A stretch of DNA of 64,000 nt from Sedimentisphaerales bacterium (GCA_963708075.1 OY970194.1:1472001-1536000), one strand, 5' to 3'; positions 9,930 through 64,000 are shown, counted from the stretch's first letter. The notes: generated by a model from the sequence alone, not told the origin. A program made the numbers and translations.

Positions 9930-11253
9930 CTACGCGTCCTTGTCCTGCGGGATATCCACGATCCGAACACAGACCGGCTTGCCGCTGATTATGTCCAGCC
10001 GGGACAATTCCTTCAGGGCCGCCGTCATGTTCTTCTCCTGGGTCTTATGGGTGGTAATGACAACCGGGACTGTATTGTCCGGGCCGGTTCCTTCGTGCTG
10101 AAGGGCGCCGGAGATGCTGATCTGGTGATCGCCGAGAATCTTGCCGTACTGGGCCACCACACCCGGCTTGTCCCTGGCCATCACGCGGATATAGAACCGG
10201 CTTATGGATTCGTCGATTTTCTCGATCAGAGGCGCGGTTTCACTTCGCGGCTTCATCCTCAGGTGCTCAAACGTGGTCTTGGAATTGCCGAGCGCCACGT
10301 CGATGATATCGGCGACCACCGCACTGGCGGTCGGCATCATGCCCGCCCCCCGGCCATAGTAGAGCGTCTCACCGACCGCATTGCCGAATATGCTGATCGC
10401 GTTGAACGAGCCATCGACGCGCGCCAGCGGAGTATCGGCCCCGATGAAGGACGGATGGACCCGCAGCGCGATCCTGCCCTGGTCGTTCCTCTGGCCAATG
10501 GCCAGCAGCTTCAGGCAGTAGCCCATCTCCCGGCCGTAGCGGATGTCCTCCCGGGCAATCCGATCTATGCCTTCGACGAAGATATCTTCGAGAGCGATTT
10601 CGTATCCGAAGGCGATGGAGGCCAGAATCGCCAGCTTGTGGGCCGTGTCGCCGCCGGAGATGTCGAGCGTCGGATCCGCCTCAGCAAAACCATGCTTCTG
10701 GGCCTTGGCCAGCGCCTGGGCGAATTTCTCATCCTTCAAGCTCATGCTGGAGAGGATGTAGTTGCAGGTCCCATTGACGATCCCGAACATGGCGGTGATC
10801 CGGTTGGCCGCCATTCCCGTTCGGATCGCCGCGATGATGGGGATTCCGCCGGCACAACTGGCTTCGAAGGCGATGCACCGGCCGTTCTCGCGCAACGCGG
10901 TAGAGCTCCGGGCCGTGCGTCGCGAGCAAAGCCTTATTGGCCGTGACCACATCTTTGCCCGCGCGGAGCATCTTGAGCTGAACCTCCTTCGCGATGCCCG
11001 TTCCGCCCACCAGCTCGACACCTACACTGATGCTCTTATCACCGACAAGCCGCCCGAGATCGTTGGTGAGCACCCCGGCAGGCAGTTGCACCGGTCGCGG
11101 CCGCTCGGTATCGACGTCCACGACGCAGGCCAGCTCCAGGCGCACGCCCATTTTCGACGCGATGGCGTCGGCGTCCTCCAGGATCAGCTTCGCCACGCCG
11201 CTGCCGACCGTCCCAAACCCAACTACCCCTACTCGTACCCGCTTTTCTTCCAC
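9930..11253 (-). CDS. hom: Homoserine dehydrogenase with ACT domain; frameshift near 10890
   Basis: GVVGFGTVGSGV, VVTANKALLA, FEASCAGGIPII, GIVNGTCNYIL, AEADPTLDISGGD, GRGAG. Confidence 0.95.
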
Positions 11254-11808
11254 AAAACACCTGCCACTTCCCACTCCGGCAGCGGTGCTTCCGCTGCCTT
11301 AATAAATAGCCCTTTATAAAAAACAATTAACCCTGGCAGGTCAAGCGAAAACCCGCCGGGCTACGCAAGATTCAACGCCCCGGCACGGTCCGGGGCCGGT
11401 TCGCCCAAGTCGTTGCACATGGGTCATCCCAGTCTTATCGGCAGATTTCGGGCCCTCCAACATGTGCGGAGGCCGGTTCCTGCCAGTCCTTCGCAGCGAA
11501 CGAGTCGACACGCTGTACTTGTGTCAATGGGTGGCATCGTCAAGGCTGGAGGCCTTGGCGATGGCGAATGGGCAAACCATCGGCAAGCTCGCGCTTGCCG
11601 CTGCCACCCGCCTCACAGGAGACTTGGTGGCGAGACGTCTTCCATACAGGCAATGGAGGGAGCCGCTATACAGGTCGGGCGAGGATTTTCGGACATGGGT
11701 GCGCAGTGGCCCTTGATGGGCGGATGCAGATAGGCTATTCTTACCCGGCATACGACAGCGTCTATGGTAGGACGCACGGTTGAGTGACTCAAGGATAGGA
11801 GAATTGGG

Positions 11809-50561: not shown

Positions 50562-52385
50562 ATGAACAAGCAACGTACATACCTATTTGGCGGCTCACGC
50601 ATCGGCGGGCCTCGGGCACGAGCTTCCAGCGGCATCCTACGCTGGGTCTGGAGTTTCCTGACGATAGCCGTGCCGGGAAAGACGCCGTGGACTGCGGGCC
50701 TGATCGGCTTCGTGACATTCTTCGGCCTTGCGGGCGTTTGTGCGGCGGCCGAGTCCGGCGGCACGGCGGCTAAGGCCGCTCCACAGGCGACCAAGCCTGC
50801 AACCAGTAGCCAGGCGGCTGCACCTTCAGCGGGTCTCCGCGACCCACAGGCTTACATGCAGGAGCTGGCGGCGAAACTCCATCCATCGACCGACAAAGAT
50901 GTGCTCCTCAAGGGGACTGCTTCACAAGCGAACGGCTCTACTCAGCAAGGCCCGGCGACGGGGAAATCGCCGGCCGGCCGGGGCATGAGTCCATCATCGC
51001 CCGTCATCACGGCACAGGTGCTCCAGCCGGGACTCGACGGCAAGAAGGGCAAAGCGGCGGAGAAAGACACCCCTGCGCCCACGCGATTTATGTCTTTTTG
51101 GGATGATCCGTCGCTCAAGAGCGATCCAGGGGCGAACCTGATCATGGCATCGGAAACATCCGCGGCCGAAGAGAAATCTTCGTCGGCAGGACCGGTCGCC
51201 AATCAGCCGGCCCCGGCAACTCCGGCCGACCCGCGGGAGGAAATCCTCGGGCCGTTGGGCGTGACACTTGCTTCCATGAAGCCGGGGGTGACGCTGTCGT
51301 CGGACCCGAGCTTGATCCCGCCACCGGGATCCTCGGCGGCTAACTTCGCTGCGAAAGTGACGGCCGACGGTGCGACGCAGGCGAAAGTCGAGGACGAGAA
51401 AGAAGCCGAGAAAGCGGAAAAAGAACCCTGGTCCCTGGGAACGGACCTCGATAAGTATCGGGCTCACGCGGTCCGCGAGGGCTCGCGGGATTCCGGGCAG
51501 AATATCAAGAAGGCATTCGAGCGGGCGGGATTGACCCTGGAGGATGGGGCCAACGTGTTTTTGTTGGGGTATGCGTCGGACCGGGGACAGCCGTTCAGGG
51601 CCAACGATGGGAAGGGGCTGCTGGATGAGCCCGGCAAGGTGCCGCAGCGGGCGGGAGACGCGGTGGGCAATGCGGGCCTGGGGCTGTACTCTGTGGCGGA
51701 CCTGATTCTGCTCAATGGGCTGCGCGACCCGATGACGGCCGCCTATGGGGACAACCATCCGGTGGTCCGGCCGCTCGTGTTCACCGGGCGGATGGTCGGC
51801 GGGGTCTGGAAGACCACGGAAGAGGTCGGCAATGCGGTCACGTGGGGGTACTTTGACAATTTCACCGGGACCATTGGGCTGTGCATTGAGGATATTCTGG
51901 AGTTGCTGAAAAACGCGGGCGAGGCGGTGACGAATATCGCCAGGGCGCCGGTCCAGTTGGTCGCCGGGAAGAACGAAGGGACGGAGCGGGCGATGGACTG
52001 GGTGCTGCTGGTGCCCCTGGAGTTCATCAGCAATGCGACGGAGATGAAGGGCTTCGCGAATATGCAGGATTATCAGGCGGCGTTCGAGGATAAGGGCGTC
52101 ATCGGATCCGTGGTCGAGCTGGGTGGGTCCAGTTTCCTGGTCTATCGCGGCGCCGAAGAGCTCGCCGACAGGCTGGATAACAAACATCACCACCGGCGCT
52201 GCGCCACCGCAGAGCCCGACGATCCTGGAACTCCTGACGTGCCACCCGACCCGGGCACACCACCCCCGCCACCGCCACCGGATGTAGTCTTTCTCCTCGA
52301 TGGCATGTGGCCGGTAGAGGGCGGATCGCCGGGTGCGATTCTCATCGACGGAGTTTGGACAACGATTAAAACCTGGCGGGAGTAA
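50562..52385 (+). CDS. Hypothetical exported/membrane protein
   Basis: N-terminal hydrophobic segment, long Ala/Pro/Ser/Lys low-complexity region, Gly-rich helical domain, poly-Pro tail. Confidence 0.75.
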   Translation: MNKQRTYLFGGSRIGGPRARASSGILRWVWSFLTIAVPGKTPWTAGLIGFVTFFGLAGVCAAAESGGTAAKAAPQATKPATSSQAAAPSAGLRDPQAYMQELAAKLHPSTDKDVLLKGTASQANGSTQQGPATGKSPAGRGMSPSSPVITAQVLQPGLDGKKGKAAEKDTPAPTRFMSFWDDPSLKSDPGANLIMASETSAAEEKSSSAGPVANQPAPATPADPREEILGPLGVTLASMKPGVTLSSDPSLIPPPGSSAANFAAKVTADGATQAKVEDEKEAEKAEKEPWSLGTDLDKYRAHAVREGSRDSGQNIKKAFERAGLTLEDGANVFLLGYASDRGQPFRANDGKGLLDEPGKVPQRAGDAVGNAGLGLYSVADLILLNGLRDPMTAAYGDNHPVVRPLVFTGRMVGGVWKTTEEVGNAVTWGYFDNFTGTIGLCIEDILELLKNAGEAVTNIARAPVQLVAGKNEGTERAMDWVLLVPLEFISNATEMKGFANMQDYQAAFEDKGVIGSVVELGGSSFLVYRGAEELADRLDNKHHHRRCATAEPDDPGTPDVPPDPGTPPPPPPPDVVFLLDGMWPVEGGSPGAILIDGVWTTIKTWRE

Positions 52386-52411
52386 TTCCAGACAACACAT
52401 GTCAGCCAAAA

Positions 52412-52486
52412 TCGGGGCGAGTGGATTCGAACCACCGACCTCTTGGTCCCGAACCAAGCGCTCTAGCCAAGCTGAGCTACGCCCCG
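52412..52486 (-). tRNA. tRNA-Pro (anticodon CGG), CCA not encoded
   Basis: CGGGGCGTAGCTCAGCTTGGCTAGAGCGCTTGGTTCGGGACCAAGAGGTCGGTGGTTCGAATCCACTCGCCCCGA folds as a cloverleaf. Confidence 0.97.
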
Positions 52487-52501
52487 GTCACCGAAAGGGT
52501 T

Positions 52502-52530
52502 AAGATAACATTATCGGCGAAGGAGTGCAA
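52502..52530 (-). promoter_or_regulatory. Putative tRNA promoter
   Basis: TTGCAC-N17-TATCTT with TGn extension, 15 bp upstream of the tRNA. Confidence 0.55.
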
Positions 52531-52531
52531 G

Positions 52532-54923
52532 TTATAACAGGTTCACCGGGTCAATATCAATAGCAATTTTTACAGCGGGTCGAATTGGCTTGTCGGACCG
52601 GAGGATGGTGAAGAGCTGTCGCATGCTGCCGGCGTCGGGGGTCTGGACGATGATCTGGATGCGGTGGAATCGCTCGATGCGACTGATTACGGCGGGCATC
52701 GGGCCGCGGATTTTCGCGTGCAGCCGCTGCTGCTGGACGATGGCATCGAGCCGCTGCCGCAGGGCGTTGGCCGCCGCCTCCAGCTTCTCGTACTTCTGAT
52801 CCCGCAGCACAACGATCGCCAGCCGCCAGCTCGGCGGCAGGTCGCACGCCTGCGCGGTGCTTCATCTCCTCCCGCACGAACCCCTCGAAATCCTGCACCA
52901 TCGCGAACTTGACCGCCGGCTGCTCCGGAAAGTACGTCTGCACGAACACGACGCCCCTTTTCTCGGACCGCCCCGCCCTGCCGGCCACCTGCGACGTCAG
53001 TTGAAACGTCCGCTCATTCGCCCGAAAGTCCGGCATATACAGGCACGTATCCGCGCTGACCACGCCGACCAGCGTCACGTTGGGAAAGTGCAGCCCCTTG
53101 GCCAGGATCTGCGTCCCCGCCAGGATATCGATCTTCCCCTGCCCAAACTCCCTGAGCAGCCGATAGTAATCCTGGCTCGCCATCGAATCGCTATCCACCC
53201 GCGCGACCCGCGCCTGCGGGAACCTGCGTCGCCAGCTCCTCCTCCAGCCGTTGCGACCCGACGCCGATCATGGTCATCCGCTTGCCGCACAGCGGGCAAT
53301 CCCGCGGCACCAGCGTCTGGGCCATGCAATAATGGCACATCGCGTACCCCTGCTCCATATGCTTGCCCGTGACCGTAGTCATATGTCGCCGAGCGGCGTC
53401 GGCGTCTTGTGAAACGTCAGCGACGCATCGCAATTTCGGCACTGCAGCGTGTGCTTGCATGACGAGCAGAACACGAAATTGCTGTACCCGCGCCGGTTCA
53501 GCAGCAAAATCGCCTGTTCCTTTCTCGCCAGCATCTGCGGCAGCTGCTCCACCAGCGGCGCGCTCAGCAGATCCAGCGGATGCTCCTTCAGCGCTGCTGT
53601 CCCGCATATCCACCAGCCTCATCTCCGGCATGGGCAAGTCCATCACCCGCTTCGGCAGCCGCACCAGCGAAAAGCTCTCCCGCGTTTGGCAGTTGTGCAG
53701 CGTCTCCAGCGACGGCGTCGCACTTCCCAGCACGCAATGCGCCCCGGCAAGCTGGGCCCGTTTGATCGCCACATCCCGCCCATGATATCGCGGCGCCGTA
53801 TCCTGCTTATAGCTCGGCTCGTGCTCCTCATCCACGACGACCAGCCCCAGCGTTCCGACCGGCGCAAAGATCGCCGATCTCGCCCCGATGACCACGTCCG
53901 ATCTCCCCCGCCCTGATCTTCTGCCACTGCTGGTTTCGCTGACCCGGACGTCAAACCCGAATGCAGCACCGCGACTCGCTCAAACCGGGCACTGAATCGC
54001 TGCACCGTCTGTGCGGTCAGCGCAATCTCCGGCAGCAGCACGATCGCCGCCTTGCCCTTGCGCACGACCTGCTCGATCGCCCGGATATAGAGCTCGGTCT
54101 TGCCGCTGTCGGTCACGCCGTGCAGCAAGGTCACGCCGAATCGCCCGGTATCGATCTGCCGCGAGAGATGGTCCATCGCATTGCGCTGGTCCTCATTGAG
54201 CGTAACCTCCTCCGCCTCGCTGCTCATCCCCTCAGGCACGACCGGCAGATCCCGTGAGCACCTTCTTCTCCACGATCCGGATGACCTGCTCATCGGCCAG
54301 GTTCTTGATCGTCGCCACGCGGCAATCGGCCTCCGTCAGCAGTTCCTCCAGCCCGACCGCCGACTCCGGCGGAGACCGCCTGACGCTTCCGCAGTACCGC
54401 CACCAGCTTCCTTCTTCTTCGGCCCTTTGACCGCATCCAGGACTTCGTCCGACATGGCCAGGTAAACATACCGCCGCCTCTTCACCCCCGCCCCTCGCTT
54501 CACCGCCCCCGGCACCATCGCCGACAGCACCTGCCCCAGCGGGCAGACGTAGTAATCGCTGATCCACCCGGCCAGTTCCATCAACTGCGGCCCCAGCAAA
54601 GGCTCCTCATCCACCACGCGCCTGACGGACTTGAGCCCCCCGCCTTCGCCCTTGCCGCCAAAAGCCCTCTCCGCCGGCACATCCGACTCGACGCAAAAGC
54701 CCATCTCCAGCTTGTTGCTCTTGCCGAACGGCACCTCGACCCGCCGCCCCACCTCGATCGGCCAGAACTCGTCCGGCACAAGGTAATCGAACTCGGCGTC
54801 CGCCCCCGACGACTCCACCGCCACCCGGATCACATGCGAGCCGCAAGGCTCCTCAGCCTTCCGACGCGAGAAATCGTCCGACGTATCCACGAACAGACTT
54901 GACGTTACTTCTTTACCAGCCAT
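52532..54923 (-). CDS. priA: Primosomal protein N' (replication restart helicase), split by several frameshifts
   Basis: Fragments carry FDYLVP/VEVPFG, LHGVTDSGKTE, LLPEIALT, GARSAIFAP, VDEEHE, GSATPSLE, Cys pairs, GTQILAKGLHFPNV, QVAGRAGR, IDIDP. Confidence 0.93.
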
Positions 54924-55129
54924 AGCTTATAGCGTATTCCTAATACCTCCCGCCCGGGCGATAGAATACCGTTCCGCCCTGCCGCCAGTCAAGCAGAAGT
55001 TGCTCTTGACAGGCAATCGGATAGCAGCCAGGGAAATCGCCGGCTGTGCTACATGAACGAAGTGGACCTGGTGGACGAGGCAAAGCTGGCAGGGCGTCCA
55101 CCGAGTCCACTCCGTCCACATCATCAACC

Positions 55130-55219
55130 TACCTGCTCGATAAACATATCCGCCGCATGGAAAAGGACTTCCTCAAAGACGGCCGCCTCCGCGAACGAAT
55201 GACCCGGGCCCGCCTGGCA
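55130..55219 (+). pseudogene. Remnant of a four-helix-bundle suffix-domain protein
   Basis: YLLDKHIRRMEKDFLKDGRLRERMTRARL resembles the suffix domain of IVP-type four-helix-bundle proteins; flanked by 9-bp GTCCAC/GTCC repeats. Confidence 0.65.
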
Positions 55220-55645
55220 GGCGGACCCATCATTGGCTGCGCCATTTGGGTCCTTTTCGTCCCTTGTGTCCCTTGATTCACTCAGACAGAAACTCTCCTC
55301 TTCGAGAATTTGTCCCAATCTTGTCATTTTTCGATTGCCTACTCTCCGTCTGTCTGCCATCTTGCACCCACGGAAACACCATCGTGTTGTGAGGAATCGG
55401 GAATGTCCGGCACCCGTGAATTATCCAGGTTGGCAACCAGGTATGGTGCCCCTAATAAGGGTGGTCTGGTAAGCCGGCAGAGGCATTTGAAAGAGTTGGT
55501 GTCGACCAATGACTCCTCTCCGAATTGCAGAGTTCTTCATTCCACGATGCCCGTAAATAACAACGAGGCCAAATGCAGTGCGGAAGCCAACTTACGCGAG
55601 TGACGTATGTCTTATTCCGCAAGATCGCAGGAAAGGAGAGAGACT

Positions 55646-56788
55646 ATGCTTTATTATGTCGAGGGGAGCGCCATCCTCACCGAAGAGGAAGTTCTGGAGG
55701 CAAGAACGTTGGAACGATTGTCCACGTTCTATCGTGACTTGGCGGCAGGGAAGAAACCGAAACGGCTGGCTTTCTCGACCGGGGAACTGACGGCGGACAA
55801 TGCTGTTATGGGCCCCGGCCCCAAGGAGACAGCGGTCGAGTGGAAACCGATCGGCCTCGGCTTGCCGTTCACGGTGATGATCAGAGAAGTCTATACGGGC
55901 AAGTTTCCTCAGAAAGGGCTTTTCGGCGGCAAGAAAGGCTTCCTCATCACGTCCGCCATCAAGAGCATTGTCTTTCAGGGTGCGCAGCCGCGCGCGGTCA
56001 ACTACTTAGCGGAAGACATGTCCCCCCGGACACATACGGAGCGTCCCTCCGCAACGTCGCCCGGGACGCCCGTGGTGTTCTACTCGCCGGCCGTAATCGA
56101 AAGATCGTTAACCCTGGACCTCACAATGATATTCGACACCTTCCCTCAGGAGGCGTTCAATCAGGTTGCTGAGGGATTCAACGCTGCGGGGGCTATACCG
56201 GTCTTCCAGGTGTACAGCACCTACATTCTGGCCGCCGGGCAGCTTGTCAAACTCTTTGGAAGAGCAGGCGAGGCCATCTTTGATGGCAAGCCGGCGTTCT
56301 CCTCTTCCGACCCGCTCGACGTCTACCTGCCGGGCTCTCCTCCGCTTCGTGCGGGCTTCCGCCTGATTACCAGCGGGAATGTGGATTCTATCGACAAGGA
56401 TTTCCGCGCCAAGTACCAGATCAACGATCTGGGCAAGGTCGTGGATAGTTCCGGAAACCAATATGATGGCGACGTCCCCTACGTTGTGATCAGCGTTGAC
56501 GGCACTCTGCAGGAAGAGTTGACGTCTTTCGTCCCAAGCGCTGCCGGCACGGCGATCATGTCACGTTTCTTCGGCATCAAGGACGGACAACAACAGCCTG
56601 TGAATATGGTGATCGACGCGATCAAGCTGTACAATGACCTGGAATACCGCCGCGAGGTAGATCGGTTGGACAGGCGACTGAAAGAACTGCCCGCAGGTGA
56701 CCCGGACAGAGTGAACATCGAGAAAAGAAGAAATGCCATGGCCACCAATATCATCGAGGATCTCCTGAAACCCAAGGCAGAGGCATAG
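55646..56788 (+). CDS. Hypothetical protein (380 aa)
   Basis: Intact ORF with GGAGAG RBS; no recognisable family. Confidence 0.8.
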   Translation: MLYYVEGSAILTEEEVLEARTLERLSTFYRDLAAGKKPKRLAFSTGELTADNAVMGPGPKETAVEWKPIGLGLPFTVMIREVYTGKFPQKGLFGGKKGFLITSAIKSIVFQGAQPRAVNYLAEDMSPRTHTERPSATSPGTPVVFYSPAVIERSLTLDLTMIFDTFPQEAFNQVAEGFNAAGAIPVFQVYSTYILAAGQLVKLFGRAGEAIFDGKPAFSSSDPLDVYLPGSPPLRAGFRLITSGNVDSIDKDFRAKYQINDLGKVVDSSGNQYDGDVPYVVISVDGTLQEELTSFVPSAAGTAIMSRFFGIKDGQQQPVNMVIDAIKLYNDLEYRREVDRLDRRLKELPAGDPDRVNIEKRRNAMATNIIEDLLKPKAEA

Positions 56789-56909
56789 AGTCACTGCCAA
56801 GAGAATGAAAGCCGGCTTTTGAATCGACGGTGACGCAGCGAGTTCGTTTGGCCAGAGCCAGACGGACTCGCTGTCAAGCCATGGGACAGGTTACGCATTT
56901 CGGGAAGTC

Positions 56910-57070
56910 GCCGTGCAATGCTCACGACAGCTGCGTCTGCTACCAGAAACTCGAGGACAACATCGAATTCATAAAGACCAAAGGGATCTCCGCTTTCGTG
57001 AAGAGCCAGCAGTCGAAAGAGGAATTGATAGCCGCCATGCTGGACGAATTCAACGAAGGCCGATCATCTT
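56910..57070 (+). pseudogene. Internal fragment resembling DUF3795-type proteins
   Basis: HDSCVCYQKLEDNIEFIKTKGISAF...MLDEFNEGRS; lacks N- and C-terminal parts; family recalled from memory. Confidence 0.45.
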
Positions 57071-57208
57071 GGATGACATCACTTTTGATAGGGGTGCCGC
57101 ATTGTGGACAGACGATGGCGGTAATGGTACTCTCCGCGGCAGAACCGTGCTATCCGCTGTAAAGCGGCGGAGGGCATGGGGTCCCCAGACTTCCGGGCCC
57201 GGACTGTG

Positions 57209-57811
57209 CTAGACTCGCCTCAGCCTGATCCCGGCATAGCCCAGCCCGAGCATACCAAGCAAAGCGGCGCCGGGGAGCGGGACGGGTACAGGAGCCGCCG
57301 GGAAGCTGAAATGGACGGGCAATTCGCCCAGCGCCTGAGGTATGGGATAGAACTGTCCATCGTTCGGATTGTACACCACAGGCCATGCATCAACGTGGAT
57401 CTCACCCAGCCCATGTGCCACGACATCATACGTCCCTCCGACGGGCACATCGGTCCCGGTGGGTCGTACCATCAGCATACAGGTAGCGATCTGCACGTCT
57501 GACATACCCGCATAATCGATAAAGTAATGGCTGGCGATGCTGGAAACATGTACGGCAATGACTGTCGAATCGTCGCCTGGCCCCACAGTCGCAGGATCTA
57601 TCGAAACGCTGTAGTTCCCGTTAAGGACGCCAGTCTTCGATATACTCGCCGAGAAGACCGCCTCGAAATTCGTGGTAATAGTGCCCAATGTTGCGCCGGC
57701 CAATGAGGTTTCGTCGACCCGCTGACAAACGATCTGTGAGAGATCGCCAAAGACAGGCCCGGCGGCCCATACGATCACAGTCGAAATCAGAAAAGCTCTC
57801 CCCAGTCTCAT
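57209..57811 (-). CDS. PEP-CTERM/VPLPA-CTERM-type exosortase substrate
   Basis: Signal peptide; C-terminal PVPVPLPGAALLGMLGLGYAGIRLRRV (motif, TM, basic tail). Confidence 0.85.
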   Translation of the reverse strand: MRLGRAFLISTVIVWAAGPVFGDLSQIVCQRVDETSLAGATLGTITTNFEAVFSASISKTGVLNGNYSVSIDPATVGPGDDSTVIAVHVSSIASHYFIDYAGMSDVQIATCMLMVRPTGTDVPVGGTYDVVAHGLGEIHVDAWPVVYNPNDGQFYPIPQALGELPVHFSFPAAPVPVPLPGAALLGMLGLGYAGIRLRRV

Positions 57812-58012
57812 TTCCCGCTCCTCCAACCAAATGCTATGTCCGAGCACACTGGCCATGGGCGCAACAAACGGCCCACAGTCACGCAATGTCTCTGTGAATG
57901 CGCTCCATCAGGTGAGTCAATCCACGCATGCCCGCCGGCACTCCGTATGCCGGGGTCGCCCGTCCTTGGGATACTGCTCCGCTTTGCTCCCTAAATAGCC
58001 TCAATTGCCCAA

Positions 58013-58041
58013 ATTGTCAGGTGACGGGTAGCCGATGTCAA
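58013..58041 (-). promoter_or_regulatory. Putative sigma70 promoter of the PEP-CTERM gene
   Basis: TTGACA-N17-GACAAT with A/T-rich upstream element. Confidence 0.5.
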
Positions 58042-58487
58042 GGAGAAAAATAAATTTCTGTGCACTTTTCTCGGATTCGTGGGTGACCCTACGCCCTCCT
58101 ATCAGGCCCCTGTCGCTCTGTTTTTGGTCCTTAACCAAGTTGGAGAAGGAATCAAGGCAGTCTGTCGGCGTATTAGAAGCTTAACGGATCGCAAATAATC
58201 ACTGATCAATTCAAGGGCCCGTGCCCGCCTCGTTGGGACACTTATTCCTTTTTTTCTCTTGCTCGCTCCGCGTCCGGCCGCCATAATGCCCCCAGAGAGA
58301 CACCCTTGATGAAGCTGCGACAATGCTTGAGGTCCAGCCGGCGTGGCCGGATGCGGTGAGGCTGTAATCAGCAGCATCTCCGCGAGATCTCGAGTCACGA
58401 GAGAAGACAAGACAGGGCAATGATGCGATGGGAGACTGTTGCGGTTTCCCTGGCAGCATGTATCAGCCCCATGCGGAGTGGTTTCTT

Positions 58488-60122
58488 ATGAGCATGACCA
58501 CGTTCGACGCTTTTCTCAGTTACAGCCGCAAGGACGGGAAGGAGGCTGCTGCGCTCAAGAAGGAACTTGAGCAGCGTGACCTGCGCATCTGGTTTGATGA
58601 GACTCAGATCGTGCCGGGAGATCGCTGGCAGTCGAAGATGGAGGAGGGCTTCAAGAACTCGAATGCCGTCCTTTATCTGTACGGGCCTTCGGGGACCGGG
58701 CCGTGGCAGGAGGTGGAGCGCTTCCTGGCGCTCACTCTGGAGGTCACGGAGAACAAGAGACTCATCCCCATTCTGCTCCCCTCCGGCAAGACTCCCGACG
58801 ACTTGCCCATGCTCCTGCGGGGACTGGCGTGCGTGAGCTTCGAGAAAAGTGTCTCCGAGCGCGGCGTGCTGGACAGCCTTGTCCATGCGATTACTGGTCA
58901 ACGGCCGGAATCTGCCAAACCGCCGCCACCAGAGCCGGTATCGCCGGAGCCGGTGCCGACGCGAGGCACGAAGGTTGACCCAGGGCTGCGTAGACAAGCA
59001 ATCAGGAACCTTGCGGGGGCGCTCGCATCAGGTCCGGTCACCTTCTTCCTGGGTCCCAACGCGTCACCCGGGCGAGACGACTCCTACCCTCCGTGTGCCA
59101 GTGAGGTCACGGGCCGCCTCATGCGGGAATCTGAGTTGATCAAGGACTGCCCCAAGAATCCCCCGTGCTTTCCCCGAGACGTGGCCTGCGACTACTTCTG
59201 CGTCCAGCAATCCAAGCAACTCCTCGAGGACGAGGTGGCCGCGGTGATCCAGAAACACAGTCGTCAGATCCCGCTTGTATACGAGAAACTTGCAGGCCTT
59301 CTGGCGAAGACGCTCCAGACGAGGGGCACCACTCAGCGACACCACAAGCATCCCCAGCTCGTGGTGACCACGAACTTGGACGTTCTCATGGAACGGGCTT
59401 TGTTGCGACAGCGGATTCCCTTCACCCGGCTCGTCGTGAACTTGACCGAGCGCACGATGGAGATCAACCAGTATTGGGAGGAACAGACACAGAACGGACC
59501 GGAGAAAGGCAAAATCGTGCTCGCTACGGATCTCCGCCAAGACGCGGGTGACGAGAAGCTTGACGAGTTCATCCGCGACCATGGGCGATCTCTTTTCGAC
59601 CCCAGCCACAGGGATGACGAGAGAGAAGGCGACAACTCGCCCGAGGGGCCGGAGGGCCAGCCGATCGTCAGCGAGTTGCCTCCACTCGATCCCGCGCCGG
59701 TCCTGATGAAGTACTGCGGTTCAGTGGACCTGCCGGGCACCTGTACCCTATCGAGCGAACAGGCAATGCAGATCGCTGCCGCGGGGGTGGACATGCCGTC
59801 AGGGATCGGGGCCATAATCAACAACACCCCTTGGCTCTTCCTCGGCTATGGACTTTTCGATCCGGAGTTGCGCCTCCTCTGCCATACCGTGCTGCGAGAG
59901 TCTCGGAACACCCCGGCCAGACAGCGCGACGCCCGCTATGCTGTCCTGCCCCACCCCGCCGACGATCCGTTCGACACGGCGCGCCAGATGGAAATCCCCA
60001 TCTGGGAAAACGTCAAGGCACGCTGGACCGACTGGCGCAGCGGCACGCACTTTGTCGAGTCGCGTATCGACACCTTTCTCGACGACCTCGTGAAGGAACT
60101 CTCCAGGGTGAGCGGCCAATGA
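58488..60122 (+). CDS. TIR domain fused to a SIR2-like (SIR2_2) domain
   Basis: TIR: FDAFLSYSRKD, IWFD, PGDRW, GPWQEVE, LIPILL; Pro-rich linker; SIR2-like: TFFLGPNAS, VVTTNLDVLMERAL, MKYCGS, WLFLGYGLFDPELR. Confidence 0.88.
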   Translation: MSMTTFDAFLSYSRKDGKEAAALKKELEQRDLRIWFDETQIVPGDRWQSKMEEGFKNSNAVLYLYGPSGTGPWQEVERFLALTLEVTENKRLIPILLPSGKTPDDLPMLLRGLACVSFEKSVSERGVLDSLVHAITGQRPESAKPPPPEPVSPEPVPTRGTKVDPGLRRQAIRNLAGALASGPVTFFLGPNASPGRDDSYPPCASEVTGRLMRESELIKDCPKNPPCFPRDVACDYFCVQQSKQLLEDEVAAVIQKHSRQIPLVYEKLAGLLAKTLQTRGTTQRHHKHPQLVVTTNLDVLMERALLRQRIPFTRLVVNLTERTMEINQYWEEQTQNGPEKGKIVLATDLRQDAGDEKLDEFIRDHGRSLFDPSHRDDEREGDNSPEGPEGQPIVSELPPLDPAPVLMKYCGSVDLPGTCTLSSEQAMQIAAAGVDMPSGIGAIINNTPWLFLGYGLFDPELRLLCHTVLRESRNTPARQRDARYAVLPHPADDPFDTARQMEIPIWENVKARWTDWRSGTHFVESRIDTFLDDLVKELSRVSGQ

Positions 60123-62221
60123 CAACAACGACTGGAAACGACTCCAATCTCGGTCCCTACAAAGGGCCTGACAGCTACGAGATACGCGATGCCCTGCTTT
60201 TCCAGGGTCGTGAGCGGGAGGCTCGCGATCTGGTTTCGCTTGTCCTGTCCGCACGGCTGTCCTTGCTCCACGCCGCCTCGGGGGCCGGCAAGACATCGCT
60301 CCTGAACGCCCGCGTGCAGCCCGGTCTTGCCGCACTGGGCTGGCTTCCGATCCGCGTGCGTCCCGGCTTCAACCCGGTTGAAGCCATCAAGGTCGAGACG
60401 CTCAAGCGAGTCTTCGTCTGTCCAGTGCTCGAAGTCCAGGCCGTGGAGCGAGCCCGCCATGAGCTTGGTCTCGCGGACGATGTGTATCTGGGTGATCTGC
60501 TGTGCAGGTACCGCGAACTCCCTGTCTCCGACGACCGCAAGCGCACACTGCTCGAACCGCTTCCGAGCCCTGTTCAAGGCTTCGGCAAGATCTCGCCGTT
60601 CTGCTGTGCATGGCTCCAGGAAATCATCGACGACGCCACGTTCGCCGATTACATACAAGCCGTCCTCGCCGAGAGTAGCGGACTCGACGGCAGGATCGGC
60701 GGCGACACGACGCTGGACGCGTTTGTGAAGTTGCTCTCAAGCCCGGAAGCCGACCGGTGCTACCGCACTGTGCTTGCGAAAGTGAACGTCCCCGCGATTG
60801 GGCTGGCGCCCTTCTTCGACAATCTCTTCGCCGTACATGGGAGTCGGCCGCCGAAGCTCTCCCTGGTGCTGATCCTCGATCAGTTCGAGGAGTTGTTCAC
60901 CCGCTTCACGGACCCCGGGCCGCCGCCGCCGGACGCGCCGGAAGAGCTGCTCAGGAGGCGTCGCGAGCAACCGGATTGGCGACTGCGGCTGCGCTTTTTC
61001 GAAGAGCTTGAACAGATCTACCGCAGCGGAGGATCATGTGAACGCAGCTCGAACAGCGTCCTGCCCATCCGGTATCTGATTTCGCTGCGCGATGACTACA
61101 TCGCAAAACTCGATCCATTGCGGAGGTTCGTTCCCGAACTCGATCGGTCAGCGTATCACCTGGAGATGCTCGGCCGGCAAGAGGCAGCCCTGGCGATCCG
61201 CGAGCCGGCAGACCAATACGGCTACCGATACTCCAACGAGCTCTTTCAGCGGATCATTGAAGAGCTCACGCGGGAGGGACGTTACATCGAACCCGCCCAC
61301 CTCCAGATGGTCTGTGACAAGCTCTGGCGGGAGAGCGGCCGCGAGCTCTCCCGGAGAGCATATACCGATGGCTCGAACGCCGGCGAGATGTCTGTGACCG
61401 TGTTGAACGATCTACAGGGGACGCAGGGTATCTTCGATTCCGTGCTGACCGACTTTCTGAACGCCAATCTCGCGAGCGACGCTCAGCGGAATGAGGCCAT
61501 CGAGCTTCTGGAACCCCTCATCACATGCAGCTACACGCGAAACATCGTGGAGCGGGATAGTCTGGTCCACGCGCCCTTGAAGGACGCCGGGCTGCGCGCC
61601 GAGATTCTGGAGAAGCTCGAACGCGGGCGGATCGTCCGCGTGGAGACCCGCAACGACGGCTACTTCGTCGAAATCACCCACGAGTTCCTCATCCCTGCGA
61701 TCATGAAGCGCACGCGTGCCTTGCGATCCAATGCACAGCACGCTCACCGGAGCACTGCCATCCTCAGCATGTCCCGCCTGAGGGACAGGAATCTGACCGG
61801 CAGAACCTCCAACCTGCTATCGGAGCGCGAGTACGAGGCCCTCGATGAGGTCAGGGAGGGCCTCAAGTGGCCGGACTGGGGCATCGAGGTCATGCTGCGC
61901 AGCGCGATGGGTGTCGGCGGAGGCCCCGAGGCCATCCTCTACTGGGCGAATCGTTTCGAAACCGAGTGCAGCGTGCCGCCGATCGACGACCTGCGCGAGC
62001 GCATGAAGAGTCTGGCCTCAGATGAGTGTTGGCTTAACCTCGAGGAGTTGGCGCTCCTGCTTGCCCATGACCGGAAAGCCCCGGACGCAACGCTGCCGAG
62101 GCGGGACTGGTCCGACAAGGAACTTGACCTGATCCTGCGCAGCATTCTTACGGGAGCCGATGAAACCCGCGAGGCAGACGTCATCCACTGGACATTGCGA
62201 CATGGAGACACGCATGCGTGA
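60119..62221 (+). CDS. STAND P-loop NTPase (nSTAND1-like), 700 aa
   Basis: PYKGPDSY...LFQGRERE, Walker A AASGAGKTSLL, Walker B LILDQFEELFT, ISLRDDY, AIREPA, HLQMVCDKLW, VEITHEFL; ATGA overlap with the upstream gene. Confidence 0.9.
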   Translation: MTTTTGNDSNLGPYKGPDSYEIRDALLFQGREREARDLVSLVLSARLSLLHAASGAGKTSLLNARVQPGLAALGWLPIRVRPGFNPVEAIKVETLKRVFVCPVLEVQAVERARHELGLADDVYLGDLLCRYRELPVSDDRKRTLLEPLPSPVQGFGKISPFCCAWLQEIIDDATFADYIQAVLAESSGLDGRIGGDTTLDAFVKLLSSPEADRCYRTVLAKVNVPAIGLAPFFDNLFAVHGSRPPKLSLVLILDQFEELFTRFTDPGPPPPDAPEELLRRRREQPDWRLRLRFFEELEQIYRSGGSCERSSNSVLPIRYLISLRDDYIAKLDPLRRFVPELDRSAYHLEMLGRQEAALAIREPADQYGYRYSNELFQRIIEELTREGRYIEPAHLQMVCDKLWRESGRELSRRAYTDGSNAGEMSVTVLNDLQGTQGIFDSVLTDFLNANLASDAQRNEAIELLEPLITCSYTRNIVERDSLVHAPLKDAGLRAEILEKLERGRIVRVETRNDGYFVEITHEFLIPAIMKRTRALRSNAQHAHRSTAILSMSRLRDRNLTGRTSNLLSEREYEALDEVREGLKWPDWGIEVMLRSAMGVGGGPEAILYWANRFETECSVPPIDDLRERMKSLASDECWLNLEELALLLAHDRKAPDATLPRRDWSDKELDLILRSILTGADETREADVIHWTLRHGDTHA

Positions 62222-64000
62222 CACACTGGCCCTGATCGAGGAATTTCTAAGTTCATCGCAAGCTACGCACATCCGCTGTAACGCGAGCACCGCGCTTGGG
62301 CGCTCTCCTCTGACCCTGCTGCGGATCATCGCGACCGCAGCAAGGCCAGTATGGAACGGCTGGCCCTCATCGCGGTAAGCGATCCGTCCAGGGAGGTGCG
62401 CGACCATGCGGTCGACATCCTCCGCCGCGCCGCTGCCGGCAACCGTGCGCCGGAGGTGGTGCAGGCGGCCGTGGAGAAGCTGAACGAGACAACAAAGCCT
62501 GACGTGCGGCGCCGCGTCTACTCGCTGCTTGGCCAACTGCGAGCAGAGGGTATCACAGGGGCCCCAAGCGGTTCTCGGGGCTTCACTCCGGCGGCTGAGA
62601 ATGATTGCCTCGATCAAGTGCCTCCCGGACGCGGAAGTGAAACAGAGCTTCCAGTGGCGCCCTATATGGCTGGCGGCTGCCGGCACGCTGCCGGGCGCCT
62701 TTGTTCTCGCTCTCCTGGCGTTCCTCTTCGCTGCTCCGCTGACGTCGGAGGTGGTGCCCGCGCTGCTCATTTTTTCGCCGCTCGTGGGTGCGGGTTCTCA
62801 GCCTTGTCGCTACGCAACAAGCCATCCCCATAGGACTGCACTACGACCGTCTTGCCGGCGGCCTGATGGCAATTGTCCGCGCCGTCATGTGGTCGGTCCT
62901 GCCTTCCTTTCTTCTGGCGGCATTCATGTTTTCTGAGGCCCCCTCTTCCGCTCGCGTGTTTCCTGTCTGTCTCGCCAGTGCCTTGACGCTACCCATCGTG
63001 CTGGCTTCGGTGAAACTCGGGTCACTTCTCGCTCACGGGATCACGGCAAGGCCGTGGATAGCCTTGGGTGTACATGCCGCATCGGGTACCGCAGTCGGAC
63101 TCATCACTACCCTCGCTCTCGCCTGGCGATACCCTTCTCTCACAGACGAGACGGACTGGCCAGAAGTGATCTACTTGTGCTGGGCGATCCTGAGCCCCGC
63201 GATCGTGGGTCTGGCCGTGGCCTTCGCCGATATTGAGAGTCGGTCCGTACCACCACGGCGCGGCGCGGGCTGGGCGCGCACCTCGGTCGTCGTTTTGTCC
63301 GGCCTGGTCTGCGCGTACCTCCTCATCAAGCCCATCGGGCTCCGCCTCATGGAGCCCGTCCCGAGAGAGGACCTCTCCACAGTTCTAGCCGGGCGGCCAA
63401 TGCGCCCCATCGAAACAAGATTCGACCGGATGCTCAGCACTGACTCCGTACAGATCCTGGTCAGCGACAAGGGCTTTCCGCTCCACCGTCTGGATGCGAA
63501 TAGAGAGCCGACCGTGCGCTCGACGGGCCCCGAGAAAGGCAGGAACTTGGTGCCAGTGCACAGACTGTCCATGGGCAGGGTCTTCTGGCTACTGCAACCG
63601 GGTCGCTACCTGCTGCGCCTGACCAGCGCATCCGGCACAACGGATCTCACGGATCTGTTCCCGAGGCTATCCAATCCAACGGCATCCAGTGATTACATTA
63701 GAGCCATCTCGCTGACGCTGAATCCTCTTGGCGCCCAGGAGATAAGCCGAAATCCGGAGGTCTCACCCCGCGAGGCAGATCCCAATGGAACTACAGTCGT
63801 GGTATGGAAAACCAACCCCAAGAGGTTGCCTCTCGATGTCTCGTTCGAAGTCAGCCTCCCGCGGCAGGATATCTATGTCAGTCTATCGGATCCCGATCCC
63901 GAAGGCTACACCTCGCGCCTACTAAGGGTGACGCTGCTGGACAGCCAGAAACGCGACGTTGCCAACCGGACCGACCCGCCCTCGTTTGCACGCAGACTCT
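62214..64000 (+). CDS. HEAT-repeat + about 7 TM + extracytoplasmic domain protein; frameshifts at about 62297, 62570-62576 and 62793-62799; incomplete at window end
   Basis: GGAG RBS, start overlaps the STAND stop; HEAT-like IRCNASTALG, DPSREVRDHAVDIL, PDVRRRVYSLLGQL; hand translation of the frame from 62797 is open to 64000, with seven hydrophobic segments overall. Confidence 0.7.

Follow-up and report, generated by a model that had tools for sequence, protein, structure and literature searches.

We analysed a 64,000-nucleotide stretch of DNA from a Sedimentisphaerales bacterium (GCA_963708075.1, OY970194.1), called the window below, which comprises bases 1472001-1536000 of one contig of 7.5 Mb with a completeness rating of 92.8%. 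On its plus strand, downstream of a broken priA gene, calling of open reading frames (ORFs) revealed three co-oriented ORFs in head-to-tail order. They encode a TIR-SIR2-like protein (gene 1), a stand-alone STAND NTPase (gene 2) and a protein in which a HEAT-repeat domain precedes seven predicted transmembrane (TM) helices (gene 3, the HEAT-7TM protein). These three genes form a conserved unit across phyla and are fused in some lineages. Judged from their sequences, they probably make up a self-contained, horizontally mobile three-gene cassette that acts as an NLR-like (STAND) conflict or immune system with its three usual parts placed on three chains. We class the cassette as a variant of the NLR-like STAND conflict systems rather than as a new kind of system.

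A conserved three-gene unit and its fusions

Gene 1 spans 58428..60122 on the plus strand when read from its first ATG (564 amino acids), and the ORF carries Pfam TIR_2 and SIR2_2 matches. In-frame alternative starts lie at 58458 and 58488. The latter, which had been proposed as the start in a preliminary description of the locus, is an in-frame ATG with a GGAG at 58475-58478, nine bases 5' of it, and it agrees in alignment with where the orthologues begin; the true start is 58428, 58458 or 58488. Gene 2 (60119..62221, plus strand) is an ORF of 700 amino acids with a Pfam nSTAND1 match. Its ATG (60119-60121) and the TGA of gene 1 (60120-60122) form an ATGA overlap at 60119..60122. At the next junction (62204..62221, plus strand), a GGAG at 62204-62207 is followed by the ATG of gene 3 at 62214-62216 and the TGA of gene 2 at 62219-62221, and the two genes overlap in ATGCGTGA at 62214-62221. 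Both overlaps, read directly from the sequence, bear out the three co-oriented, overlapping genes of the preliminary description. Gene 3 (646 codons, plus strand) was obtained by joining frame pieces collinear with the orthologue in locus L003. It starts at 62214, runs through the window end at 64000 and stops at 64155, 155 bases further on. Sequence beyond the window end was fetched separately as L002, whose coordinates are window coordinates minus 56000, so that gene 3 ends at L002 8155. A promoter and terminator scan gave nothing above shuffles that bears on an operon.

Conservation of the trio was examined with an alignment of 29 STAND relatives, which was searched against one genome per species of bacteria and archaea. 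A relative is encoded by 157 matching stretches, of which 62 distinct loci were kept: 32 (L003-L034) hold the closest STAND relatives, with 27-47% identity, and 30 (L035-L064) hold distant nSTAND1 proteins. All 32 close loci were located via STAND, not via gene 1 or gene 3. In 30 of these 32, a TIR-SIR2 gene immediately precedes STAND on the same strand, and the other two (L020 and L022) are cut by contig ends. Directly downstream, a HEAT-multiTM gene, encoding an N-terminal region of about 135 residues and then 6-8 hydrophobic segments, is present in 27 of the 32. The same module is fused to STAND in two more (L012, 988 amino acids; L018, 1331 amino acids), which brings the count to 29/32, and it is missing in L020, L021 and L027, where the contigs end before reaching it. 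All three parts are present wherever the contig extends far enough. Conserved synteny, which the preliminary description had named as a check, was thus found, each miss falling at a contig end. In 22 of 24 loci, the orthologues of genes 2 and 3 share 4-43 bases at their junction.

The hosts are Binatia, several Acidobacteriota, Accumulibacter, Thauera, Burkholderiales, Azospirillum, Rhodobacterales (Tateyamaria), Hyphomonas, Gemmatimonadaceae, Treponemataceae, Desulfobacteraceae and Steroidobacter. Among the 30 distant loci, a full TIR-SIR2 gene stands beside the nSTAND1 relative in one (L063), so the TIR-SIR2 link appears specific to the STAND clade of gene 2. When 175 flanking ORFs and 12 from the window genome were compared all against all, no fourth gene proved common to more than two independent groups, and the cassette apparently is three genes, moving between contexts. 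When 60 relatives of the window genome were surveyed, 23 of them from the same genus, neither STAND (E <= 1e-20) nor the gene 3 tail was detected in any of them; 39 of the 61 searched genomes passed a quality filter. This result agrees with the earlier placement of the locus in an accessory region.

Natural fusions connect the three parts more closely. Ten close long STAND relatives of 1330-1679 amino acids were retrieved at E <= 1e-88, and in eight of them STAND is followed by 6-8 hydrophobic segments, with HEAT_2 between the two where Pfam detects it. One such STAND-HEAT-TM fusion, P0122, has TPR repeats after its seventh helix. P0124 and P0125, also among the ten, and the 1132-residue P0110 combine STAND with long soluble HEAT arrays and possess no membrane helix. 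A distant relative, P0198 (1523 amino acids), contains CbiA/ParA-like, TIR_2, SIR2_2, nSTAND1, weak HEAT_2 and FGE-sulfatase domains in one chain. Because natural fusions of both kinds exist (STAND-HEAT-7TM and P0198), the cassette can be read as a split NLR-like architecture. The proposal that such an architecture is divided over three polypeptides had already been made for this locus, and it is strengthened by the fused L012, L018 and eight of ten long relatives and by the single chain of P0198, which unites TIR, SIR2 and nSTAND1. The fusions are the best evidence from sequence that STAND would work physically with HEAT-7TM and that TIR-SIR2 would serve as an effector module of nSTAND1.

Further arrangements were seen at individual loci. 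In L024, from Thermoanaerobaculia, a second HEAT-multiTM gene, with HEAT_2 at E 1.1e-6 and six hydrophobic segments, stands behind the first at 9943-11796 and may be a tandem duplication. At 6783-10028 of L026, from Bryobacterales, the SIR2-like part and STAND share one stop-free frame of 1081 codons and the TIR part lies in another frame, which reflects either a natural SIR2-STAND fusion or assembly errors.

Domain composition of the three proteins

In gene 1, residues 29-141 (58512..58850, plus strand) match Pfam TIR_2 with an E value of 2.2e-20, and residues 416-519 match SIR2_2 with an E value of 1.8e-12; these two matches and the nSTAND1 match of gene 2 all exceed the Pfam cutoffs. The TIR domain carries a putative catalytic Glu, E97, in the motif W-Q-E-V-E. 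The SIR2-like domain, delimited by SIR2_2 and by fold matches, extends over about residues 190-564 (58995..60119, plus strand) and includes a Gly loop with G209, a T-T-N-L-D motif with N316 and D318, and a K-Y-C-G-S motif with Cys430. The AlphaFold2 model of gene 1 has a mean pLDDT of 76.5. In Foldseek searches, the top fold matches of the SIR2-like part were EcThsA (8wc0, E 2.9e-7), KomC (8zsf), DSR2 (8wyc) and BcThsA, and the N-terminus matched the TIR domains of MyD88, TLR and SARM1 with target TM-scores of 0.7-0.8. PADLOC SIR2 models cover just residues 301-349, at E of about 0.01, and an NCBIfam scan of gene 1 gave sub-threshold TIR matches only. The gene is present in a single copy in its own genome.

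The two domains differ in how well their putative active sites are kept. The second Glu of W-Q-E-V-E (E97) aligns with the last Glu of W-T-N-Y-E in solved bacterial TIR chains such as 7uwg and 8g83 (AbTIR), a residue that we take to be the catalytic Glu. Among 31 family sequences, 26 have Glu in this column, and three of the remaining five are truncated rows; six rows of this set come from Accumulibacter and are kin. G209 is invariant in all 31. The SIR2 site was mapped by aligning the motifs T-T-N-x-D and K-x-H-G-S rather than by residue-level structural superposition; on this basis the Asn is kept in 17 of 31 sequences and the His in 21. We assume both residues to be catalytic from work on ThsA (N112/H152), DSR2 (N133/H171) and sirtuins. 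Because the catalytic His is missing in the window genome, the SIR2-like domain there is more likely an NAD-binding or assembly scaffold than a second enzyme. For the family as a whole, we infer from the alignment that TIR does the enzymatic work, with the SIR2-like domain often acting as a scaffold. The "TIR-SIR2 effector" of the preliminary description therefore stands for its TIR part, with a TIR fold and Glu97 in 26/31, and not in full for its SIR2 part, with Cys430 at the His position and both Asn and His in just 12/31; it is probably a TIR enzyme whose SIR2 domain is often degenerate. The family offers a natural series in which a SIR2-like domain is without catalytic residues while TIR keeps its own, and from which it might be learned how fused NADase domains divide labour.

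Gene 2 matches Pfam nSTAND1 (PF20703) with an E value of 3e-35 and 123 bits, against a cutoff of 27.1. A Walker A motif, G-A-G-K-T-S, occupies residues 55-60, and the Walker B region, D-Q-F-E-E, residues 254-258. Residues G55, G57, K58, T59, S60, D254, Q255, F256 and E257 are invariant in alignments of 29 and of 20 sequences. Nothing besides nSTAND1 was found in Pfam, NCBIfam or PADLOC scans, and the helical C-terminal region (about residues 530-700) has no family match in them. With Walker A beginning at residue 55 and nSTAND1 as the sole Pfam match, the claim that this STAND protein is without an N-terminal effector or a repeat sensor is upheld. For the same reason, a single-chain NLR-like architecture was rejected for gene 2, the other parts being on neighbouring genes. 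About 100 full-length relatives of about 700 amino acids share 35-75% identity with it, all with PF20703, and its own genome holds a single copy. Prediction of a complex between gene 1 and STAND residues 1-430 gave a score of 0.30 against a mark of 0.32, in a run without controls, and we take it as evidence neither of binding nor of its absence.

Gene 3 is broken in the assembly into four frame pieces (62214-62378, 62351-62833, 62529-62936 and 62788-64155), all of them collinear with the L003 orthologue. To examine the breaks, contigs from four public short-read runs were aligned to the locus. Within the stretches of the three genes that they cover, these contigs show indels relative to the assembly at three sites only, all of them in gene 3. 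At 62297 (plus strand), all three covering runs (X1, X2 and X3, from two studies) have one extra G behind the base, in a G run. At 62572 (plus strand), one base inside the motif GGTTCTC is absent from X1, the sole covering run; at 62795 (plus strand), one base inside a second GGTTCTC is absent, again from X1, and the contig of a second run ends there. The frame path of the pieces, 0 to 2 to 0 to 1, is just what the three indels produce, and a read-through with X at the three sites is stop-free over 646 codons. Correction of the frameshifts, which the preliminary description had suggested, thus restores one frame by three single-base indels, two of them taken from one contig of depth 4. Programmed frameshifting was considered as well and rejected, given the in-frame sequence in the short-read contigs.

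Other parts of the window were inspected for similar errors. Within 52000-64000, GGTTCTC occurs just twice, and both occurrences hold the excess bases of gene 3. Over the whole window, GGTTCTC/GAGAACC has 22 sites (for example 883, 17622, 18319, 22026, 40787, 62572 and 62795). At about 8 of the 22, the open frame becomes clearly longer once a single base is removed, and at others it becomes shorter; these sites may mark a systematic base-calling error at the motif, which is perhaps a modified one. The gene priA (primosomal protein N', 52532-54923, minus strand) is split into five collinear frame pieces, which match NF004066 positions 2-115, 246-338, 353-456, 568-685 and 701-788. priA is essential in most bacteria. 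Because it is broken four times, single-base indel errors appear frequent in this assembly. The frameshifts of gene 3 are most likely assembly errors.

The N-terminal HEAT-repeat domain of gene 3 covers residues 1 to about 152 (62214..62669, plus strand) and is predicted to be cytoplasmic. Its match to Pfam HEAT_2 (E 2e-5, 25.2 bits) falls under the cutoff of 27.7 bits. HEAT_2 is found at the corresponding position in 23 of 27 orthologous or fused proteins at E <= 0.01, eight of which reach the 27.7-bit cutoff. In an AlphaFold2 model of the L003 orthologue, built from 25 aligned sequences, residues 1-132 form helical repeats with a pLDDT of about 90, and this region matches HEAT proteins with Z 8-9 (VIA). 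Gene 3 and this orthologue are 27% identical over 442 amino acids. The seven predicted transmembrane helices span residues 153-376 (62670..63342, plus strand), where a hydropathy scan of the X-bridged read-through found seven hydrophobic segments, followed by a region of 245 amino acids. In the orthologue model, seven long helices occupy residues 137-364 with a pLDDT of about 90, and the tail has a pLDDT below 50. A profile of the HEAT-7TM family recovered 243 representatives at E <= 1e-30 among 1.84 billion sequences, most of them 340-900 amino acids long and matching from residue 1; looser counts are inflated by HEAT repeats.

Loop charges were used to predict the orientation of gene 3. Sums of Lys and Arg over 25 sequences, many of which are kin, amount to 136 before helix 1 and to 9, 39, 12, 25, 3 and 42 in the successive loops. 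The HEAT end and the loops between helices 2-3, 4-5 and 6-7 are expected to be cytoplasmic, and the tail, which follows an odd number of helices in a protein with its N-terminus inside, would therefore lie outside the cytoplasm. By this parity and by the loop charges, the C-terminal domain (residues 377-646; 63343..64000 and on to 64155, plus strand) is predicted to be outward-facing, and it is highly variable among orthologues. Tail length after helix 7 ranges from 6 to 515 amino acids among 24 orthologues, being 135-515 in 21 of them, and the tails align poorly. The gene 3 tail has no Pfam, NCBIfam or PADLOC match; the transmembrane-plus-tail piece found only itself in a word-based search of 5.8 billion proteins and gave no usable match in the ESM Atlas. 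Conservation in gene 3 is concentrated in the HEAT domain and in the loops on the cytoplasmic side, with a motif after helix 2 and a V-R-A-G-T motif as examples. The polytopic membrane sensor of the preliminary description is thus recovered as far as its seven helices and, by loop charges, an outward tail are concerned, while its role as a sensor is suggested rather than observed and must accommodate orthologues with tails of 6-35 residues. Residues 622-640 (about 64078-64134, past the window end) are weakly hydrophobic, with a mean hydropathy of 1.62, and end six residues before the C-terminus; if they span the membrane, the extreme C-terminus would re-enter the cytoplasm.

Relation to known systems

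Named defence systems were compared through PADLOC v2, whose database (PADLOC-DB 2.0.0) dates from 2023. No family matched gene 2 or any gene 3 piece at E <= 0.1, and gene 1 gave weak domain-level matches only. We presume that PADLOC v2 covers single-chain STAND systems. Assignment of the cassette to Avs or another named STAND defence system was rejected, as neither gene 2 nor gene 3 has a PADLOC v2 match. A full-text literature search, from whose scope subscription journals, figures and supplements were excluded, turned up no account of the cassette. Within this database and this literature, the combination lies outside the named systems, in line with the preliminary description, which did not recognise it as one of them.

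The nSTAND1 clade to which gene 2 belongs was named by Kaur, Iyer, Burroughs and Aravind (eLife 2021, PMC8195603). Parts of the text of that paper place nSTAND1 in counter-invader systems with TIR-type effectors and repeat sensors, sometimes on separate chains, and thereby already outline both the STAND clade and split effector/NTPase systems. Gene 2 belongs to the same clade by its score of 123 bits and its invariant Walker A and B residues, whereas the sensor-like partner in the cassette is a HEAT-7TM membrane protein. The terms "TIR-SIR2" and "7TM" are absent from the text of PMC8195603, and a mention in its figures or supplement is possible. No effector-associated adaptor domains (EADs) were detected in the cassette proteins by Pfam. 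Kaur and colleagues are said to invoke such EADs for linking separate chains.

TIR and SIR2 are common effectors of single-chain bacterial NLR-like proteins. Similar to Avs, bNACHT and TIR-NLR proteins, the cassette has the order effector, STAND NTPase and repeat sensor, and its relative P0198 holds TIR, SIR2_2, nSTAND1 and FGE-sulfatase in a single chain. In contrast to those proteins, the cassette consists of three chains, the third of which is predicted to be an integral membrane protein with an outward tail. The tripartite plan of effector, NTPase and repeat sensor is stated in the available part of bioRxiv 10.64898/2026.10.19.760177, and characterised Avs proteins sense cytoplasmic phage proteins according to the portion of PMC12803255 consulted. 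The ParA-TIR-STAND "apoptosis" systems, as outlined in that part of bioRxiv 10.64898/2026.10.19.760177, form a class into which P0198 fits. By contrast, the cassette of the window is split and possesses no ParA module, and the terms "SIR2" and "7TM" do not occur in the preprint.

Thoeris, with its ThsB TIR and ThsA SIR2-SLOG proteins, also combines TIR and SIR2 NADase-type domains in one system, and the SIR2-like fold of gene 1 is closest to ThsA (8wc0 as above; also 8btp and 6lhx). Unlike Thoeris, the cassette fuses TIR and SIR2 in one chain, adds a STAND NTPase and a membrane protein, and in the window lacks the SIR2 His. Pfam detects neither a SLOG nor a Macro signal-binding domain in gene 1. 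Against Thoeris models, gene 1 scored 21.7 bits with NCBIfam type III ThcB4, versus a cutoff of 220, and an E value of 0.027 with PADLOC ThsB. Membership in Thoeris was rejected on these grounds: TIR and SIR2 on one chain, no SLOG or Macro, and ThcB4 far under its cutoff. DSR2 and KomC (HAM-SIR2) resemble residues of about 190-564 of gene 1 in fold (8wyc and 8k9a, and 8zsf and 9xvc, respectively; Foldseek E of about 1e-6), but identity is 12-15%, the PADLOC SIR2 models reach E of about 0.01, Cys replaces the His in the window and the partners are different. Membership in DSR was likewise rejected for the change of the catalytic His to Cys, the different partners and the weak PADLOC SIR2 match.

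Proposed mechanism, rival explanations and genomic context

A working scheme for the cassette can be proposed. The HEAT-7TM protein would reside in the inner membrane, with the HEAT domain facing the cytoplasm and, in orthologues that have one, the variable tail located in the periplasm. The HEAT domain would hold the C-terminal helical region of the nSTAND1 NTPase, as in the fused STAND-HEAT-7TM proteins. If a phage adsorbs or injects, the envelope is damaged or another cell is involved, the resulting change at the membrane or in the periplasm would be passed through the seven-helix bundle, upon which the NTPase would be released or switched. It would then bind ATP and oligomerise, and oligomerisation would gather TIR-SIR2 proteins and turn on the TIR NADase (Glu97). 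The NADase might lower NAD+ or make a nucleotide signal, and growth of the infected cell would stop. The specific form of this scheme is an outside-in receptor in which a variable periplasmic domain senses an envelope event before or during invasion and relays it via HEAT to a separate STAND, by which the TIR enzyme is assembled. We regard this form as possible and hold it tentatively, with more doubt than confidence. If true, it would be a hybrid of Toll-like receptor and NLR in its logic, built from three chains, with an outer domain swapped between lineages.

In the characterised NLR-like systems of bacteria (Avs, bNACHT), a single cytoplasmic protein recognises phage proteins within the cell. 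The cassette puts effector, switch and a membrane-embedded third part on three chains, and it occurs in at least 12 bacterial lineages with hundreds of family representatives. With it, two questions become open to direct test: can a signal from the membrane or periplasm set off STAND immunity, and by what means does a switch that has no effector of its own recruit one in trans? Azospirillum sp. TSO22-1 (L013) and Tateyamaria armeniaca KMU-156 (L033) are cultivable carriers.

Several observations weigh against the reading of the cassette as an immune system of this design. The tail has just 6-35 amino acids in three of 24 orthologues (L004, L022 and L025). Ectodomain sensing is therefore not general, as the tail is nearly absent in these three. 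When the full 661-residue model of the L003 orthologue was used as query, HEAT/ARM and generic helical matches were all that Foldseek and VIA returned, and for the seven-helix bundle within that full-length model no solved fold beyond generic helical repeats was found. The window's sequence is alone among the 31 gene 1 family members in having Cys at the SIR2 His position, with Asn316 present, and the SIR2 catalytic residues are degenerate across the family (both in 12 of 31). Collections of plasmids (E <= 1e-20) and of phages (E <= 1e-10) yielded no STAND relative. The defence-island context is weak, with 9 of 81 neighbour ORFs matching PADLOC at E <= 1e-5, a count for which there is no control set; these ORFs are the longest non-overlapping ones of at least 150 amino acids, and the 81 scanned, out of 175, come from L003-L019 except L006, L008 and L010. 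Lastly, two of the three indel corrections in gene 3 rest on the one depth-4 contig of X1, which has 9 substitutions against the assembly and may derive from a sister strain.

Several of these points also bear on rival explanations. In one of them the cassette is the same and the roles differ: instead of being the sensor, HEAT-7TM would serve as a membrane anchor or act as a second effector, such as a helix bundle by which the membrane is opened or disturbed after STAND activation, and the C-terminal helical region of STAND, together with the HEAT repeats, would read a cytoplasmic molecule as the trigger. Repeats in NLR-like proteins are usual cytoplasmic sensors, which speaks for this view, and part of bioRxiv 10.64898/2026.10.19.760177 states the same. 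The sister proteins P0124, P0125 and P0110, with STAND on long soluble HEAT arrays and no membrane helix, the three nearly tail-less orthologues and the concentration of gene 3 conservation in its HEAT domain and cytoplasmic loops point in the same direction. However, the long tail (135-515 amino acids) of the 21 other orthologues is very variable and includes TPR domains, as would suit a recognition surface, and 30 of the 32 loci have a dedicated gene for an enzyme effector. We consider this rival fairly unlikely. We judge it improbable that the cassette serves a purpose other than defence against phages, such as kin discrimination, the response to a predator or contact attack, or regulated cell death in multicellular-type bacteria, a role put forward by Kaur and colleagues for nSTAND systems. 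Its hosts are mainly environmental and sludge bacteria, matches to PADLOC among the neighbour ORFs are few (9/81), none of its relatives was found on phages or plasmids, and PMC8195603 frames nSTAND systems, in parts of its text, as both counter-invader and apoptosis-like. On the other hand, its distribution is patchy, strain-specific and cross-phylum with changing contexts, and the gene 1 fold is nearest to the phage-defence NADases ThsA, DSR2 and KomC; both features are typical of anti-phage systems and neither is decisive.

The possibility that the system is defunct in the window genome, with real frameshifts in gene 3, a lost SIR2 His and a decaying locus, would account for the four frame pieces in the assembly and for Cys430 in place of the catalytic His. 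The dependence of two of three corrections on one low-depth contig with 9 substitutions, possibly from another strain, leaves it some room. We nevertheless regard it as very improbable: the indel at 62297 is contradicted by all three covering runs, all four pieces are stop-free and collinear with orthologues, and genes 1 and 2 are intact. Moreover, priA in five collinear pieces in the same window shows indel errors to be common in this assembly, and the location of both excess bases in GGTTCTC, with about 8 of 22 such sites lengthening the frame upon base removal, looks systematic. Three unrelated neighbours that overlap by chance can practically be dismissed: gene order and coupling are repeated in 29-30 of 32 loci spread over many phyla, and natural fusions exist, which refutes this idea. 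The NLR-like three-gene cassette accordingly stays the explanation that we favour, at the strength given at the outset.

In the window genome, the cassette is located between priA and uvrB (uvrB start at L002 17437). The adjoining 55000-58500 has a lower G+C content, 0.55-0.58 versus 0.61-0.64. An ORF of 393 amino acids at 55607-56788 (plus strand), in this low-G+C stretch, has no Pfam or NCBIfam match. Another, of 225 amino acids at 57209-57886 (minus strand), has no match in the Pfam scan and encodes a C-terminal hydrophobic segment followed by basic residues. A tRNA scan of 18 kb around the locus found none. At L002 14332-15507 (minus strand), 6 kb past the window end, an insertion sequence-type transposase with DDE_Tnp_1_assoc and DDE_Tnp_1 sits between the cassette and uvrB, among genes with no or weak family matches. 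At other loci, additional TIR ORFs lie less than 8 kb from the cassette, at 558-1139 in L003, 1215-2738 in L005 and 11830-13257 in L015; they match PADLOC TIR-TM, Aga_TIR/SAVED_TIR and TIR effector models with E values of 4e-6 to 1e-9.

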